Of a DNA stretch of 64,000 bases, positions 41,065 to 46,109 are shown one piece after another. The notes beneath the pieces were generated by a model. It searched no databases and had not been told where the DNA came from. It saw only the letters and a list, made by a program, of their open reading frames with translations. The position numbers and the translations under genes were made by a program. The first letter of the stretch is position 1. Every line of letters starts with the position of its first letter. The stretch lies in contig JBLWFJ010000001.1 of NCBI GenBank assembly GCA_048320885.1, positions 1,413,642 to 1,477,641 of the forward strand, in the 5' to 3' direction. Origin of the DNA: Nannocystaceae bacterium ST9. Its GTDB lineage: Bacteria; Myxococcota_A; Polyangia; Nannocystales; Nannocystaceae.

Positions 41065-41082
41065 GGGCCGGGATCCGGGCCC
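41065..41082 (+). terminator. GC-rich near-perfect palindrome (GGGCCGGGATCCGGGCCC) 4 nt after the esterase stop
   Basis: Direct read of the sequence, with one internal mismatch. It marks the boundary before the lower-GC island. Confidence 0.3.
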
Positions 41083-41158
41083 ATCACGAGGACGGCTGCC
41101 CGAGTTCGAAAACCCTGCCCACGCGCGAGTCTCTTGACGTAGCATCGATCGTGCCTCG

Positions 41159-44100
41159 ATGCCGGAGTACGGATCTCGGAGCCCCGCGTCATTGCCTGCA
41201 CCTCCGCAGCCGCGAGTGAGCGCGGCCGGTCCGGCGAACGGCCAGCTCAATCGTCGTTGGCTCGAACTCGGGACTCGTCCAGCCGCCGCAGCGGCCACCC
41301 CCGTCGAGCAGGAGTTCGACGGCGTGACGTTGTCGACGGATCCAGCCGTCACGCGGCGAGAATTGTTGAACGTGCTGGCCCGCGACGAACGTGGTGGACT
41401 CGCCGGATTGCGTGGGTTCGTCTTCGCGTTTCGACTGGGGGCGGATCGGGCCCCATCGACGAGCATCCTACCCGTGGTCGAACGGGTCGCGGCCGAGCTG
41501 GATGCACAGTACACGCGCGAACGGGATGCCTTCGAAGCGCTGGTCGCCCAAGAGACTCGTCGATTGCTCGATCGAAGTCGCGCGCGGATCCTGGCGGAGC
41601 GAGAGCGCTACGGCCTACGTCGTAGCTCGACCTCGTTGCCTCGTGACCCCGAACGCCAGACTCGCCAAACGGACACGACTCACGACATGGCGAACAACGA
41701 CGCCACCCGCGAGCTCGCGCAGGCCGCCTCTGTGCTCATCGACGCGATCCAAAACGTCGAGCGTGCACGCGCCGGGATCACTCCAACCCCGCCGATCGTC
41801 CAGGTGTTCCGGGCGATGTCCGGGCAGAGCCAACTACTCGGCCGCTCGCAGGCCCTCGTGGCTCGAACACCAGCGGCGCCGGCCGGCCGCGAACTCGATG
41901 GAATGTCGGTTGGCATCGACTTCTCGCGCTTGTTCAGCCCGCGTCACGACCCGCGCGAGGCGCTGCCGATGCGAATCGATGGCAGGAGCCCGGCCGACGG
42001 GCGGGCATCTCTGCTGTTTCCCTTGGACCGCGAGGAATCCGACTTTCAGCGAAACACGGCGCGCCTTCAAATGGCCGAGCGCGAGTACGAGTTCACCCGC
42101 CAGGGCATCGAGGCGCGCCATCCAATGCTTGCGGCGTTTCGCGGCACCGACTCGCTCGCCAGTCTGCGCCAAATTGCCGCTGGTCCGTCCGAGGGGAACG
42201 CCGAGCTCCTGTTCTCGACCGGAGAGGAACGGCTCGCCAACATCGACTCGGTTCGTTCAGCGATTGGCGGTCGCTTTCAGCCGATCATGGAGCCTCGTCT
42301 GGTCGCGCTCGCACGCCAAACTCGACCTGGACCACCCGATCCTGCGCTCGATCGCGTCGTTCGCGAACGCGTCGAACAGATCCATTCGGACGAAGCATGG
42401 TGGGCGACCGTCACCGCAGTGGTGAGCTTCGCCATCGCTTCGATCGCCATCGTCGGCAGCATGGGGCTCCTCGCGCCCGAAGTGGGCGCGACCGCGACGC
42501 TCCTGGGCACTGGTATCGGCCTGAATCAGACGGCCCAGAGTCTCGCCGAGTACCAACTCGAGTCCAGCGCCAGCAACACCGACTTCGCGCCCGAACTCTC
42601 GGCTTCCGAGCGAACACCTTCACTCTGGAGCACCGGGTTCGACGTTCTCGCGTCCGCGTTCGACGTCATGGGTGCGGGGGCCCCCCTACGCGAATTGAGT
42701 GCGGCGATTCGCACGGCTCGCGCCACGCGGGCGCTCGACGCCCTGGCCGCCACCGCTCGCGCCCAATTTCATGCGCTGCCCGCCGAGCTTCGAGCCGCGA
42801 CGAACGAGGCCGCGTTCGTCGAACAGGTCCTCGCCACGGCCCGCCAACCCGCGGGCGCCGGCGAACTCGAGTTTCTCGCCCATCATCCCGTCGGCCTTCC
42901 GGCGTCCGGCGTCCTGAGCGAAGCCGCAGCCACGGGTCGTCCAGGGCTGATCGCGGTGGTGCCCGTCAACGAGGTCCATTCGATCTCGGTGATCCGTGCG
43001 AACGACAGGGTCGTGCTCCGGATTTGCAGCCCGAGTTGCGGGCCGCTCCACACCACGCTCGTCGAACTCGAACACCACGCAGGCCACGAAGCCAGCGAGA
43101 TTCGGGGCATACTTCACGACCTCGAGGACGTCGAAGCGACCTTCGGAGCCACACCCGTCGATCCGGCCGGACAAGCGCGTCTCCAACGACTCGCCGAGCG
43201 AGTCGAGGTGCTTCGAACTCGGGTGGGCGAAGCTCAGTTCTTCGGCGAGTTCGATCTCGCCACTCGGATTCGCAGTGGTGCGGATGTCGACGAGCAGCTG
43301 CTTCGAGAGCGACGCGATCAGCTAAGGAGCCTGTCTTCACTCACGGACGTGGAGCAAGCGCGACTCGAACTCGTCGAGCACCGGCTCACGCTCTACGACA
43401 TATCCATGGCCCAACCCACCTCCGACGGGATCTTCCTCGACTACGGGTCGCGGCCTAGGACGACCACGCCGGAGTTCGGCAACGTCGATCTCGACTCGAT
43501 GGCACCGGCGACAAACACTCGATCTGGACCTCGCCCCGATCTGGACGACGCGAGCATGCGCGCCAACGCCAGCCGAGTCCCCGAGCAAAACACTTTCGGT
43601 CCCGCGTCGAGCGTCCGAGGAGGCACCGAAGCACGCTCGGGAATGTTCTTCCACGAATACAACGCAGCCGAGGTCGCCAATCGACTGCGCATCGACTACG
43701 ACCCCGTCGCCGGACGGCCCCGGAGTATCAGCTATCGCATCGACGCTTCGGCGGCCCGAGCCCGGCCTCAGAGCCCACGCACCTTCACGTACGACCCGGC
43801 GACGGGAGGCATGCAGCCGGATCCCGTCGCGTTCTCTGGCACGGGATTCGACCTCGGTCACGGCGCTCAACGCGAAGCATTTCGTGGTGACATCGATGTC
43901 GAGCTGGCGGTCGACCAGATGACAGGAGTGGTCCCACAAGCAGCAGCTTCGAACCGCGGACGTGGTTCGCCGTGGCGGCAATCGGAGCGCAACGCAATGG
44001 CCTGGGCGCAGACCTTCGGCTCGGTCGACGTTCATACGGAGTTCATCTACGCCGCGAATCCTCCGCGACTCGCCGACGGCACTCCAATCCCACTTGCGAT

Positions 44101-44164: not shown

Positions 44165-44382
44165 CCACGGTGGGGATCAGTTCGAATTCAATCCCGCGTG
44201 TGGTCGGCTTGCGCTCGAGTTGCCGCTCGACGGCGACCCGCGCGTCGGCTTGGTCGGAGCCGAAATCTCCCGCAGGAGACTGCGGTCCGATGGCCCTCTG
44301 CTCATTCCGAACTCGCTACCGTGGTCCGCGCCATCGTGGACTCGACTTGACATTCGCGCGCTTCAATGTCATCAATCATGGG

Positions 44383-45681
44383 ATGGCTGATTGTCTGGAA
44401 TCCATCGATCACCTCGCCCAGCAGATCGCCGAACTCGCCCGCAGCGTCGATGCAGTCAAGCACGCATGGCTCGGGCGAATCCGTGAATTCGATGCCCGCA
44501 ATGGTTGGGCGGACACGGGCTGCGTCTCGATGGTCGCGTGGCTGGCCTGGTGGACGGGCACCAGCAACAAGACGGCCAGCGAGCATGTCCGTATCGCCCG
44601 GGCGCTCGGCGAGCTGCCGTTGATCGATCAGGCATTCGCGGTCGGGGAGCTGACCTATTCCAAGGTTCGCGCGCTCACCCGCGCCGCCACGCCGGCCACC
44701 CAACAGACCCTGATCGACGTGGCCAAGGCCGCGACCGCCAGCCAACTCGACAAGATCGTCGCTGGATTGCGGCGAGTCCGAGCTCACGCGAATCCCGAGC
44801 AGAGCGGCGGCGAAGCGCCGCGTCGATTCGCCCGCTTCACCGAGACGCCGGAGGGCATGGTGTGGATCGTCGCCCAGGTCGGACCCGAGGAGGCGCTCGT
44901 CCTTCGAGCGGCGATGGACATGGCGCAATCTCCCGCGGGAGATTCGACGCCTCCCCGCGCCGCCAACGACCCCCAATCTCCCGCGGGAGATCACGGCTCC
45001 GACCAAGCCGACGCGCTGGTCGCCGTCGCACGCGGCTATCTCGAGCGCAAGCCGACCACGCGCGGGACCGGATGCGAGCTGATCATGATGACCACGCCCG
45101 AACAACTCGCCCACGGGCCCGAAGGGATCGGTGGATTCCTGCGCGATGGCACCCCGCTGCCGCTGCACGTGGCCCGAATGCTGGCCTGCTACGCATCGCG
45201 GGTCGACGTGAGCGTCGGCGAGTCGGGCGAGATCCTCGACGTCGGCCGCTCGCGTCGAACAATCCCCACGGCGATCGGACGCGCGCTGACGCTGCGCGAC
45301 GGTGGCTGTCGCGTGCCGGGCTGCGGGCGCTCGCGGCATTTGCAGGCCCATCATGTCGACGCGTGGGCAGAAGGCGGCGAGACCTCGATCTCGAACCTCG
45401 TGCTGCTCTGCCCCGGCCACCATGGCTTGGTCCACGAGGGCAAGCTGCACGTCGAGGTTCGAGCCGGAAAGCTCGAATTCATCAATGCGCACGGTCTGAC
45501 CATCGAGCCTATGCCGAACCACAGCATCGACCCCGAGGCCGTCGCCGCTTGGCTCGACGCGGCCGAGCCCTCGGGCGAGCCGTCGATGGCGTGGGACGGG
45601 AGTCGACTCGATCTTCACGAAGTGATCGGTTGGATGATGCTGGCCGAGGGATTTCGAGCGGACGTGGGCGCGTGGGGATGA
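44383..45681 (+). CDS. DUF222-HNH endonuclease (13E12-type)
   Basis: ATG at 44383 (MADCLESIDHLAQQIAELARSVD...). C-terminal HNH motif HHVDAWAEGGETSISNLVLLCPGHHGLVH. The upstream part of ORF 43972.. is junk. Confidence 0.8.
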   Translation: MADCLESIDHLAQQIAELARSVDAVKHAWLGRIREFDARNGWADTGCVSMVAWLAWWTGTSNKTASEHVRIARALGELPLIDQAFAVGELTYSKVRALTRAATPATQQTLIDVAKAATASQLDKIVAGLRRVRAHANPEQSGGEAPRRFARFTETPEGMVWIVAQVGPEEALVLRAAMDMAQSPAGDSTPPRAANDPQSPAGDHGSDQADALVAVARGYLERKPTTRGTGCELIMMTTPEQLAHGPEGIGGFLRDGTPLPLHVARMLACYASRVDVSVGESGEILDVGRSRRTIPTAIGRALTLRDGGCRVPGCGRSRHLQAHHVDAWAEGGETSISNLVLLCPGHHGLVHEGKLHVEVRAGKLEFINAHGLTIEPMPNHSIDPEAVAAWLDAAEPSGEPSMAWDGSRLDLHEVIGWMMLAEGFRADVGAWG

Positions 45682-46109
45682 TTGCGCAGGGCTCATCTCG
45701 GGCCCTCTTGGCTGCATGGCCGTCTGGTCAGCTCAGGCGTGGATCCGCCTCGAGCCAGGGACTGAATGATGCGACACGCATATGCTAATCAGGATCGCGT
45801 ACGTGTACGGGTCGTGCTGTGTGCAAGAACCCCATCCTGAGTCGGCAAGTCGTCGTCGGATGGTACTGGACGGCACCAACCGGACGTGGCGCGCATGGGT
45901 CAGTCCAACGTGTTCTACACCGTCATCGCGGACGAGCGGTTCCGGCGTGACCCTTGGATCCGGGGCGTGCTCCGCCGGATCGAGGGTCACACGGACACGC
46001 CCATGAGCCGTTCGGCTCTGGCGCCCGTGCTCGCCTCGGATGGCCGTCCGGAGAACGCCCACGGACCCGCGGTCCGTGACCGAGCGACAAACCCGGCAGA
46101 CCGCCGCGT

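Follow-up and report, generated by a model that had tools for sequence, protein, structure and literature searches.

The question raised by this locus is whether the large open reading frame (ORF) in a lower-GC segment of Nannocystaceae bacterium ST9 encodes a polymorphic toxin, by which route such a toxin would be delivered, and whether a DUF222-HNH gene or a small ORF downstream of it belongs to the same system. The stretch of DNA that was analysed (the window) has a length of 64 kb, and the features discussed here are collected in Table 1. The predicted 1001-aa frame is present, and NCBI annotates the same gene with a GTG start at 41216, corresponding to 982 aa, and with the product name 'DNA/RNA non-specific endonuclease [Nannocystaceae bacterium ST9]'. 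The 1001 codons are unbroken and show a coding-type pattern (GC1 0.72, GC2 0.54, GC3 0.73).

Table 1. Features of the toxin locus, with positions in the window.
Feature	Position	Strand	Basis or remark
Short GC-rich hairpin UGGGCC...GGCCCA, 6-bp stem	41064..41083	+	left edge of low-GC3 segment
Toxin gene, 1001 aa	41159..44164	+	ORF call; Nannocystaceae bacterium ST9
Pro/Ala/Ser-rich leader, aa 1-40, predicted disordered	41159..41278	+	pLDDT <50, composition
Trunk module A, aa 45-215, alpha/beta	41291..41803	+	local phmmer domain map, alignment, AlphaFold
Trunk module B, aa 290-560, helical domain	42026..42838	+	phmmer; pLDDT 94-98 at aa 290-420
Hydrophobic helical hairpin within module B, aa 395-472	42341..42574	+	AlphaFold helices, Kyte-Doolittle
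Disordered linker ahead of tip, aa 728-839	43340..43675	+	pLDDT <50 for aa 728-841
NUC / Endonuclease_NS (beta-beta-alpha-Me) tip, aa 840-1001	43676..44161	+	Pfam, PDB profiles, Foldseek
Pseudogene fragment, second inverted DUF222-HNH copy	44175..44294	-	matches aa 197-233 of intact gene
Left end of HNH element, promoter-like TTGACA at 44347-44352	44303..44382	+	alignment with 8 MAG copies
DUF222-HNH endonuclease gene, 432 aa	44383..45681	+	Pfam DUF222 4.5e-23, HNH 7.6e-7
Palindrome AATCTCCCGCGGGAGATT, two copies within HNH gene	44924..44991	.	
83-aa ORF, proposed immunity candidate	45886..46137	+	unsupported

Between 41 and 46 kb of the window the GC content is 0.644-0.672, as compared to 0.70-0.74 on both flanks. 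As comparable dips also occur at 10-15 kb, 28-34 kb, and 60-62 kb, this dip is by itself not unique, and the codon signal of the segment is much stronger than its GC signal. GC3 is 0.733 in the toxin gene, uniform over trunk and tip (0.71-0.75), and 0.80 in the HNH gene, as compared to 0.901 +/- 0.031 in host genes (n = 20 genes of the window). All three codons that had been said to become frequent are indeed higher per 1000 codons in the segment than in the host (CGA 25 versus 13, GGA 17 versus 3.6, TTG 10 versus 6.7). The toxin gene is part of a horizontally acquired low-GC3 segment, in agreement with the lower-GC island of the original prediction. The palindrome announced at 41065 exists as a hairpin adjoining the stop codon (41061) of an upstream esterase-like gene; it is real but statistically unremarkable (z-score -1.4; 18 of 200 shuffles fold equally well), and no T-run follows it.

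The C-terminal region, which had been likened to NucA/EndoG-type nucleases, matches Endonuclease_NS (PF01223) over aa 840-990 with an E-value of 6.7e-10 and 39.4 bits, the Pfam gathering cut-off being 23. A profile search against the PDB recovered NucA, EndoG, and Serratia nuclease with E-values of about 1e-4, in an alignment that pairs the DxGH histidine and the PQxxxxN asparagine of the tip, and Foldseek matched only EndoG, EXOG, and Serratia nuclease when queried with the tip model, which is of low confidence (pLDDT 53). The domain is thus a NUC/Endonuclease_NS domain, here serving as a toxin tip and not as a housekeeping enzyme within a conserved context. Its motifs are D898-L-G-H901, Q927, N932, and W939..E943; with 5 tip relatives aligned, D898, G900, H901, N932, W939, and E943 are invariant, so that all three catalytic residues (His, Asn, and Glu) are kept. 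In comparison with all four tip relatives, Leu899 replaces Arg/Lys, Gly902 replaces Leu/Met, and Gly923 replaces Asn, and because of these three substitutions near the active site the nuclease activity of the tip could be reduced. In Spd1, activity is lost when the equivalent His, Asn, and Glu are replaced by alanine, with further substitutions of His and Asn included, whereas the Arg of (D/N)RGH is not required (PMC3258162).

An exhaustive phmmer search returned 234 relatives, all of which share the region of module B (aa ~290-560). The phmmer domain map reveals a second shared stretch at aa ~40-205 and nothing common beyond aa ~700; the conserved trunk makes up the front 560-700 aa of the toxin, reaching ~700 in some relatives. 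Module A, modelled by AlphaFold with pLDDT >90, is kept in about 50 of the 150 relatives listed and lies directly after the DUF4157 domain in those relatives that bear one. The trunk in the window is 24-34% identical to the family (best non-self identity 34%) and deviates from the strongly conserved trunk motifs AIPTGGSS and DPSLFWLALD. The internal transmembrane block of the original prediction corresponds to a Kyte-Doolittle maximum (19-aa) of 2.23 at aa 420-438 and to a modelled hairpin of two helices (aa 395-434 and 444-472), a region in which the trunk-family consensus reads AIGLGLLAAIPTGGSSL. The N-terminus is Pro/Ala-rich without a hydrophobic stretch, and the linker motif LDYG...F.NVDL (aa 760-778) is found again in the corresponding linkers of three tip relatives (L003, L031, and L033).

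When orthologues with swapped C-termini were looked for, the C-terminus proved not to be uniform: the C-terminal 250 aa of 137 relatives fell into 46 unrelated clusters, and the tips of relatives include Col-Pyo_DNase, Ntox1, Tox-HNH-HHH, CDI EC869-like, HopA1, M91, and DUF922. A matching nuclease tip (57% identity) was found on a trunk without detectable similarity (L031). A common trunk with differing tips and the same tip on another trunk bear out the reading as a polymorphic toxin. Neither of the two outcomes that the original prediction had named as refuting it, a match of the tip to a housekeeping family or a uniform C-terminus among orthologues, was observed.

As had been noted from the sequence, no Rhs, PAAR, VgrG, MIX, FIX, LXG, lipobox, or other delivery feature was recognised in Pfam and NCBIfam scans. 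Among the 50 trunk relatives scanned, 29 contain eCIS_core (DUF4157, PF13699), a marker of eCIS toxins, in which long linkers are common (PMC8213781; PMC11297309). Two of four sampled relatives lacking DUF4157 (P0004 and P0020) lie within eCIS operons. Each is immediately preceded by a WHD+AAA ATPase gene, and their clusters also contain Phage_sheath_1, Pvc16_N, and a small, separate eCIS_core gene, Phage_T4_gp19 being present in L004 only. The tip gene of L031 is followed 20 nt downstream by a Pvc16_N+CarboxypepD_reg gene, and the same pair is annotated on one gene in the eCIS cluster of L005. The window toxin itself displays no DUF4157/eCIS_core match in Pfam even at E<=1, and neither a DUF4157 gene nor an eCIS structural gene was found among the ~42 ORFs of the 64-kb window, as judged partly from the best 25 of 55 matched families; its gene is therefore termed an 'orphan' effector gene. 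Orphan but intact members of the trunk family were also found in other genomes. Domain anatomy, trunk homology, tip variability, eCIS-operon kin, and the conservation of catalytic residues are thus resolved directly. Because the trunk kin are rich in eCIS_core, carry tips of 46 clusters, and occur inside eCIS operons, and also because the same tip on an unrelated trunk directly precedes a Pvc16_N gene, the 1001-aa protein is probably a polymorphic toxin of the eCIS/CIS-effector ('EAT') kind, and from these relationships we infer delivery through an eCIS.

Such a protein would be a cytoplasmic product with no Sec signal, and leader and trunk would recruit it to the tube/spike complex of a contractile particle whose genes lie at another place in the genome. 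A Pvc15-like AAA+ ATPase could assist loading, possibly together with a DUF4157 partner acting in trans. The leader is a candidate loading signal because AlgoCIS cargo have disordered N-terminal loading sequences; in that system loading is directed by the disordered N-terminal domain, and DUF4157 is not needed. Contraction of the particle would expel the toxin, the hydrophobic hairpin may aid its association with, or crossing of, the target membrane, and the exchangeable, Mg-dependent NUC-family tip would then degrade nucleic acids non-specifically. In this reaction His901 would act as general base, Asn932 would bind Mg, and Glu943 would organise the water bound to the metal.

Alternatively, the gene might be a decaying relic, that is, a displaced and no longer delivered copy of an eCIS effector that persists only through chance or as a store of toxin modules on which recombination can draw. 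The lack of DUF4157, of eCIS neighbours, and of an immunity gene would fit a relic, as would the atypical codons in a segment scarred by selfish elements, with a pseudogene fragment beginning 10 nt past the stop codon, and the lineage-specific character of the three substitutions at otherwise conserved positions; the metagenomic tip relatives L032 and L034 each contain an in-frame stop codon, indicating that decay does occur in the tip family. However, the intact frame with its coding-type pattern, the retained catalytic residues, trunk modules modelled at pLDDT >90, the intact orphans of other genomes, and the dispensable Arg of Spd1 make a relic possible but doubtful.

Delivery by a T6SS, by outer-membrane exchange, or by autonomous insertion through the hairpin in the manner of alpha-pore-forming toxins is improbable. 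The window is without an eCIS gene, myxobacteria have a T6SS, and DUF4157 occurs now and then in T6SS effectors, according to work cited in PMC11297309; against this, none of the delivery features scanned for was recognised, and the kin of trunk and tip are located in eCIS operons and not in T6SS loci.

It is very improbable that the nuclease, membrane-anchored or CIS-associated, is directed at its own producer for the release of eDNA or for developmental lysis, as might be proposed by analogy to Tme or to EndA-type DNA-entry nucleases. Myxobacteria undergo developmental autolysis, and a nuclease of this kind would agree with the lack of an immunity gene. Tme, which has a similar overall architecture, promotes eDNA release and sporulation of its own producer (PMC11126660). 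However, the tip polymorphism of the trunk family is typical of antagonistic toxins, and the gene, acquired horizontally, is without close orthologues.

The gene downstream of the toxin contains both predicted domains, DUF222 and HNH, and the original prediction had left open whether it belongs to a mobile element or encodes immunity. Its relatives occupy 22 loci, all in one Myxococcales MAG, with 60-91% aa identity (best segment), the full-length copies being 88-92% identical across about 1.36 kb, and no relative of the toxin and no homologue of the flanking genes in the window lies next to any of the 22 loci. Eight MAG copies share TCCTGATCACGCAACCC-TTGACA-17 nt-TAAAAT-7 nt-ATG, and in the window, too, the start codon lies close behind TTGACA; the unit consists of the ORF, about 58 nt with its own predicted promoter, and a tail of about 11 nt. 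The pseudogene fragment is an inverted repeat, 87% identical to 44962-45084, whose minus-strand translation PQSPAGDFGSDQADARVAVER-QLERKPTTRGIEFELI matches the HNH protein (tblastn 1e-12), and a third copy of the palindrome lies at its edge (44264-44284). Within 15.8 kb of HNH genes the 14-nt palindrome core is found 17 times, versus three times in 195 kb outside them, each of these three preceding a full copy by 70-125 nt. For 4 of 9 full copies, a gene fragment ending at the palindrome lies just upstream. The DUF222-HNH gene is the core of a multi-copy, REP13E12-like selfish element unrelated to toxin function; this compact element landed beside the toxin, and the fragment is a remnant of an older, inverted copy.

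The genes 3' of seven tip relatives all differ (cytidine deaminase, Pvc16_N, an opposite-strand GFO/IDH oxidoreductase, unknown ORFs), no conserved immunity gene was detected among the tip relatives examined, and no NuiA-like inhibitor gene is present; many eCIS toxins are without an immunity gene (PMC8213781; PMC11297309). The 83-aa ORF that had been put forward as immunity candidate found no support: it has no Pfam or NCBIfam match at E<=1, no homologue downstream of tip relatives L001-L003 and L031-L034, and runs into the start of the actual downstream gene (46110..47060). That this ORF or the HNH protein is the cognate immunity protein or partner of the nuclease, as adjacency might suggest, is hardly conceivable, given the HNH loci apart from toxin relatives, the HNH gene's apparent own promoter, the differing genes behind related tips, and an ORF without a family match.

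In its layout, the selfish element resembles REP13E12 (the '13E12 repeat family') of Mycobacterium tuberculosis, a DUF222-HNH element (Gordon et al., 1999, cited in PMC10589994); both measure about 1.3-1.4 kb, consist essentially of one DUF222+HNH ORF, and are multi-copy per genome. The window element differs by its occurrence in Myxococcota (22 loci, one MAG) and by its conserved internal palindrome of 14-18 nt.

The toxin is a well-resolved, fairly ordinary member of an already known class. With EATs (Geller et al., 2021, PMC8213781; Danov et al., 2024, PMC11297309) it has in common the order of an N-terminal marker or trunk, a long linker, and a C-terminal toxin that varies; EATs commonly have nuclease tips and often lack an immunity gene, and the homologues of the window trunk mostly contain eCIS_core. 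Of the genomic criteria for EATs, two can be applied within the window, namely DUF4157 in the protein or at most two genes away and proximity to an eCIS operon, and there the toxin has neither. By architecture, its closest counterparts appear to be Tme and Sle1 of Streptomyces. Tme (BN159_7576), a tapemeasure-related effector of the Streptomyces davawensis CIS, combines DUF4157, TM helices, a coiled coil, and a DRGH nuclease, is CIS-loaded, and is non-toxic as a His-to-Ala mutant (PMC11126660). Both proteins are large, with predicted TM helices, long helical regions, disordered linkers, and a C-terminal EndA/NUC-type nuclease, and both belong to the world of DUF4157-linked effectors. However, Tme has 2247 aa and a DUF4157 at its N-terminus, and its gene belongs to the CIS cluster, where it lies shortly upstream of those for the baseplate, whereas the window toxin has 1001 aa without DUF4157 and its gene stands alone. 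Sle1 of the S. lividans phage-tail-like particle lacks DUF4157, has a TM hairpin, and is loaded via a small DUF4157 partner (bioRxiv 10.1101/2025.11.06.686954). It resembles the window toxin in the absence of DUF4157 and in its helical hairpin, and has a long helical N-terminal region; in contrast to the window gene, it is always flanked by the small DUF4157 partner (Sle2) and the sheath gene, and its architecture does not include a nuclease tip. The tip, in turn, shares the DxGH histidine, the PQ, the Mg-binding Asn, and the W...E glutamate with Serratia nuclease, Anabaena NucA, EndoG, EndA, and Spd1. It is short (about 160 aa) and divergent, with DLGH instead of the DRGH of the NUC family, and whereas its NUC family relatives are secreted or mitochondrial enzymes, the nuclease encoded in the window is the tip of a modular toxin.

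The gene in the lower-GC segment encodes a protein of 1001 aa with a trunk of two modules (module A, aa 45-215; module B, aa 290-560) and a C-terminal tip (aa 840-1001), and it is a new and divergent member, encoded as an orphan, of a known class of polymorphic toxins associated with phage-tail-like injection systems (eCIS), with such a system as its probable delivery route. The sole full-length match in the databases was its own NCBI version from ST9, a 982-aa 'DNA/RNA non-specific endonuclease'. The start of the gene is ambiguous, as ATG 41159 would yield 1001 aa and GTG 41216, the NCBI choice 19 codons later, 982 aa; the two candidate starts lie within a leader predicted to be disordered, and a clear Shine-Dalgarno sequence is present at neither.

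The presence of a NucA/EndoG-like nuclease module at the C-terminus, which had been proposed in the original prediction, was supported by two types of comparison. The Pfam model Endonuclease_NS (PF01223) matched aa 840-990 with 39.4 bits (gathering cut-off 23; E=6.7e-10), and a three-sequence profile of the tip matched Anabaena NucA, EndoG, and Serratia nuclease in the PDB (E about 1e-4), with the DxGH histidine and the PQxxxxN asparagine lining up. Residues H901, N932, and E943 of the toxin were aligned with H124/N155 of NucA and H89/N119/E127 of Serratia nuclease, and D898, G900, H901, N932, W939, and E943 were invariant in an alignment of five tip relatives. Glu943 is located four residues past the conserved Trp, and the catalytic His, the Mg-binding Asn after PQ, and the Glu of the NUC family are all kept, these roles being assigned from a study of Spd1 in which the equivalent His, Asn, and Glu were essential and the Arg of the (D/N)RGH motif could be replaced by Ala, the Arg119Ala variant being still active (PMC3258162). 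This Arg is absent from the toxin, which has D-L-G-H where the four tip relatives have R or K, and because Arg119Ala of Spd1 keeps its activity (PMC3258162), DLGH alone is not a sign of inactivity. Each of L899, G902, and G923 deviates from a position conserved throughout the four tip relatives, and these three changes may reduce the activity of its tip. A tip model obtained from a 3-sequence alignment had low confidence (pLDDT 53), and when such low-confidence models were used in Foldseek searches to look for the beta-beta-alpha-Me fold, the top 13 matches were all EndoG/EXOG (best E=1.8e-4, TM about 0.45), followed at lower ranks by Serratia nuclease and then by the nuclease-like domain of autotaxin/ENPP. 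The metagenomic tip relatives L032 and L034, which are nearly identical to each other, share the same in-frame stop (GRGDRDV*SAMD) inside the nuclease domain and are therefore probable pseudogenes.

No close orthologue was obtained when a set of 1.84 billion representative proteins was searched exhaustively by phmmer, with aa 1-835 as the query. The best non-self match showed 32% identity, and the top identity among the module B matches listed was 34%. A total of 234 proteins share aa ~290-560 (83 at E<=1e-10) and a second shared region comprises aa ~40-205; in a local domain map a few relatives matched up to aa ~700 and no similarity was detected beyond. Word-indexed searches with the full protein or with a profile of module B returned the self match or one fragment only and were uninformative because Ala-rich words fill the candidate list. 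The trunk family has no Pfam model. AlphaFold modelled modules A and B with confidence (pLDDT 90-98), predicted aa 1-40 and 728-841 to be disordered, and placed a hydrophobic helical hairpin at aa 395-472 (Kyte-Doolittle maximum 2.23).

An N-terminal eCIS_core domain (PF13699, formerly DUF4157) was present on 29 of 50 scanned trunk relatives, whose tips comprised Col-Pyo_DNase, Ntox1, Tox-HNH-HHH, CDI EC869-like, HopA1, M91-like, DUF922, and DUF6782, and a longer trunk relative carried an Ntox4 tip. When the last 250 aa of 137 trunk relatives were clustered, 46 unrelated clusters were obtained, none of which matched the tip of the window's toxin. On the metagenome contig L031, a tip 56.5% identical to aa 812-1001 of the toxin is preceded by 509 aa that match neither its trunk nor the module B profile. 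As tips are swapped on one trunk and one tip is found on different trunks, the family displays both hallmarks of polymorphic toxins. The polymorphic-toxin reading has thus withstood the search for swapped C-termini, since the C-terminus is not uniform among relatives, and the tip did not match a housekeeping enzyme family. The trunk of the L031 protein contains six tandem linker motifs (PQTPSGLELDPAAKP..STYGERDLG), and a related LDYG...NVDL motif occurs in the linker of the toxin (aa 760-778).

With respect to delivery, Rhs, PAAR, LXG, CDI, and SitA-type domains (RHS repeats, PAAR, LXG, haemagglutinin repeats, lipobox) gave no Pfam or NCBIfam match at E<=1, in agreement with the original prediction as regards Rhs, PAAR, LXG, and lipobox, and PF13699 gave no Pfam match to the toxin at E<=1. 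DUF4157 was also absent within two genes of the toxin, where esterase-like, kinase, HNH, 316-aa, and dynamin-like genes are located, and no sheath, tube, baseplate, Pvc16, or Pvc15-like genes were among the matches listed for ~42 ORFs distributed over the window, which represents 64 kb of the 6.98-Mb ST9 contig; no eCIS operon was recognised within about ten genes of the toxin. The absence of DUF4157 and eCIS genes within these 64 kb is the main weakness of the eCIS reading.

The eCIS contexts come from the relatives. In those bearing DUF4157, module A begins directly after this domain, and the toxin and about 14 of 50 aligned relatives have a DUF4157-less N-terminus of only 40-140 aa without HExxH. 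Four DUF4157-less trunk relatives on long contigs were sampled for their context. Two of them, P0004 (locus L004) and P0020 (locus L005), are encoded inside eCIS operons directly after a gene for a WHD+AAA (Pvc15-like) ATPase, in clusters that contain Pvc16_N and a separate small eCIS_core gene and, at L004 only, also Phage_sheath_1, Phage_T4_gp19 (tube), and DUF6760 genes; the other two are orphans amid ordinary genes. On L031, a Pvc16_N+CarboxypepD_reg gene begins 20 nt after the tip-bearing ORF, and the same pair of domains is annotated on a single gene of the L005 eCIS cluster. From the contexts of the trunk relatives (L004, L005) and of the tip relative (L031), it is evident that each half of the toxin is separately tied to eCIS loci. 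DUF4157 is known as a core eCIS marker that is either part of a toxin protein or encoded beside it, and very long linkers are frequent (PMC8213781; PMC11297309). In AlgoCIS the loading signal is a disordered N-terminus and DUF4157 is dispensable; aa 1-40 of the toxin, a candidate for such a signal, are Pro/Ala-rich with pLDDT below 50, their disorder being predicted from AlphaFold confidence and composition.

In view of the eCIS contexts of the relatives and of published work on Tme, Sle1, AlgoCIS, and DUF4157, the best-supported mechanism is that the toxin would be an orphan effector for a contractile particle whose genes lie elsewhere, into which it would be loaded in trans; the hydrophobic hairpin of the toxin would help membrane association and its NUC tip would degrade nucleic acids. 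The anatomy and homologies of the toxin and the contexts of its relatives are established, and from them we infer loading, injection, and activity.

There is no cognate immunity gene directly downstream of the toxin, where a DUF222-HNH selfish element is found instead, and this HNH gene was ruled out as an immunity gene because it belongs to a multi-copy element. ORF83, an 83-aa ORF that had been put forward as the only immunity candidate, had to be abandoned: it has no family match and no NuiA-like match, is not conserved beside tip relatives, and overlaps the next real gene, and its tblastx matches are GC-rich noise. The genes downstream of seven tip relatives all differ, and eCIS toxins commonly lack immunity genes (PMC8213781). 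A conserved ORF of 220-230 aa without a Pfam match directly follows three trunk relatives (P0004, P0020, and P0158), with HExxH near the C-terminus in two of the three; it is absent from the window and is a candidate immunity protein or chaperone of this subgroup.

The host chromosome has a high GC content (about 70% in the window), and GC was 0.644-0.672 over 41-46 kb versus 0.70-0.74 in the flanks. Third-position GC (GC3) is more telling than total GC for the toxin segment, with values of 0.733 for the toxin gene (even from trunk to tip) and 0.80 for the HNH gene compared with 0.901 +/- 0.031 for 20 host genes of the window. The codon shift that had been perceived in the toxin segment was recovered on counting, with CGA increased 2-fold, GGA 5-fold, and TTG 1.5-fold; of the 'palindrome' at 41065, a small hairpin does exist after the stop codon of the upstream gene but it is statistically ordinary. 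A promoter and terminator consensus scan of 40.9-46.3 kb gave nothing useful. In PHROGs, the toxin matched a 'nuclease' family and, weakly, one family of no known function, and the matches of its neighbours were HNH-endonuclease families for the HNH gene and a kinase for one adjacent gene. Elsewhere the window contains housekeeping genes, DnaB and an ABC transporter among them, and no sign of a tRNA-linked island or prophage was found in it. Its sole tRNA call, a dubious ARAGORN 'tRNA-???' with a two-base anticodon inside a kinase/AAA_16 ORF, is very likely a false positive. Two further segments of the window have a lower GC content (0.60-0.67), and the first of these, with HTTM-domain and JmjC/cupin genes of GC3 only 0.74-0.78, may be acquired DNA too.

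Features of the toxin region, of the remaining window, and of loci with relatives (positions refer to the window unless a locus is named)
Feature	Position	Strand	Remarks
Lower-GC segment with HTTM and JmjC/cupin genes	10156-13954		
Kinase/AAA_16 ORF	22746-27797		1683 aa
ARAGORN tRNA call	26500-26597		
Lower-GC segment	28000-34000		
ECF sigma factor, anti-sigma factor, two Ser/Thr kinases			upstream of toxin
Esterase-like gene	ends 41061		upstream of toxin
Toxin ORF	41159..44164	+	1001 aa
DUF222-HNH pseudogene fragment	44175-44294	-	HNH aa 197-233; 87% identical to 44962-45084
AATCTCCCGCGGGAGATT copies, window	44264-44284, 44924-44944, 44975-44991		
DUF222-HNH gene	44383..45681	+	432 aa
ORF83	45886..46137	+	83 aa
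316-aa gene	46110-47060		downstream of HNH gene; no assigned function
Dynamin-family GTPase, first of tandem	47062-49074		670 aa; just past the island
Dynamin-family GTPase, second of tandem	49099-52248		1049 aa
HNH loci L007-L028			22 loci, MAG JANNHJ01, Myxococcales bacterium SOY_6_C_metabat_27
AATCTCCCGCGGGAGATT copies, HNH loci	L009 9876; L019 9931; L021 9902		
ORF of 220-230 aa	L004 12331-12993; L005 12305-12997; L029 12142-12804		after trunk relatives
Tip-bearing ORF	L031 2-2101		
Pvc16_N+CarboxypepD_reg gene	L031 2124-3011		
Tip relatives with in-frame stop	L032 74-565; L034 175-666		

In the HNH gene, DUF222 (E=4.5e-23) and HNH (7.6e-7) are both encoded by one ORF. A scan of one genome per species revealed 22 related loci, all in a single related metagenome-assembled genome (MAG), with 60-91% aa identity to the window copy over the best aligned segment; they are often located at contig ends, where repeats are expected. 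Between full-length MAG copies, identity is 88-92% across about 1.36 kb, and their flanks are unrelated. The unit common to these copies extends from about 58 nt 5' of the ATG to 11 nt past the stop codon and includes a promoter of its own (consensus TTGACA-17 nt-TAAAAT, about 7 nt 5' of the ATG), and the window contains one full copy and one fragment. Neither a toxin relative nor a homologue of the window's flanking genes was found beside any of the 22 loci, and no terminal inverted repeats or target-site duplications of the element were seen. Of the two roles that had been considered for the HNH protein, part of a mobile element or immunity, these results favor the first, and the HNH gene is a selfish element unrelated to the toxin. 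As a multi-copy DUF222+HNH element of ~1.3-1.4 kb it matches the REP13E12/DUF222-HNH repeats of mycobacteria (PMC10589994).

The fragment begins 10 nt past the toxin stop codon in inverted orientation. As its minus strand translates into part of the HNH protein, it is a remnant of an older, opposite copy, the remainder of which appears to have been replaced by the 3' end of the toxin gene, and for the same reason two other roles considered for the 120-nt inverted repeat, that of an invertible promoter switch and that of a long-range structure in the mRNA, were set aside. Nested HNH fragments of a similar kind occur in MAG copies. The inverted fragment terminates at the palindrome AATCTCCCGCGGGAGATT, which is present once or twice, at a conserved position, in most full-length HNH copies. 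The HNH genes (15.8 kb) contain its 14-nt core 17 times and the flanks (195 kb) only 3 times, and all three flank occurrences lie 70-125 nt upstream of a full HNH copy, as in the window, where gene fragments end. This concentration in HNH genes and upstream of full copies suggests, as a lead obtained from the sequence, that the palindrome may be a hot spot for breakage or insertion (nested insertion or template switching).

These results move the annotation of the toxin from 'DNA/RNA non-specific endonuclease' to a modular toxin with a probable delivery route. A trunk without a Pfam model ties together at least 234 eCIS-type effectors with dozens of different tips and could be used to find orphan effectors distant from injection-system operons, and predictors of eCIS-associated toxins that are based on DUF4157 or operon proximity would miss orphan genes of this kind. 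In addition, a family of compact DUF222-HNH selfish elements that carry a promoter of their own and, internally, a palindrome is documented in Myxococcota, and the behavior of the palindrome is a small lead on the mechanism by which REP13E12-like repeats move. The novelty is modest and present understanding is not overturned; the interest lies in the unmodelled trunk family as a marker of orphan effectors and in the behavior of the HNH palindrome.

A more far-reaching proposal, which we consider rather unlikely, is that the trunk with its two modules and the hairpin (aa ~45-215 and ~290-560; an undescribed family), and not DUF4157, would be the true loading and membrane-translocation device of many CIS effectors, that DUF4157-less orphans would be loaded in trans, and that myxobacteria might use the nuclease cargo for developmental lysis or for the release of eDNA.

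Among known systems, Tme from S. davawensis is a CIS-associated protein in which DUF4157, TM helices, and a coiled coil are combined with a DRGH nuclease, and toxicity is lost in its His mutant (PMC11126660). In the Tme class, DUF4157 is N-terminal and the gene, the largest in its CIS cluster, lies 5' of the baseplate genes, whereas the toxin lacks DUF4157 and has no CIS cluster in the window. It resembles Tme in architecture, having TM helices, helical regions, and a DRGH-type tip. Sle1, which lacks DUF4157, is an effector that has a TM hairpin and is loaded via a small DUF4157 partner. The role of Tme in Streptomyces, in developmental lysis and eDNA release, provides an analogy for a possible use of nuclease cargo by myxobacteria.
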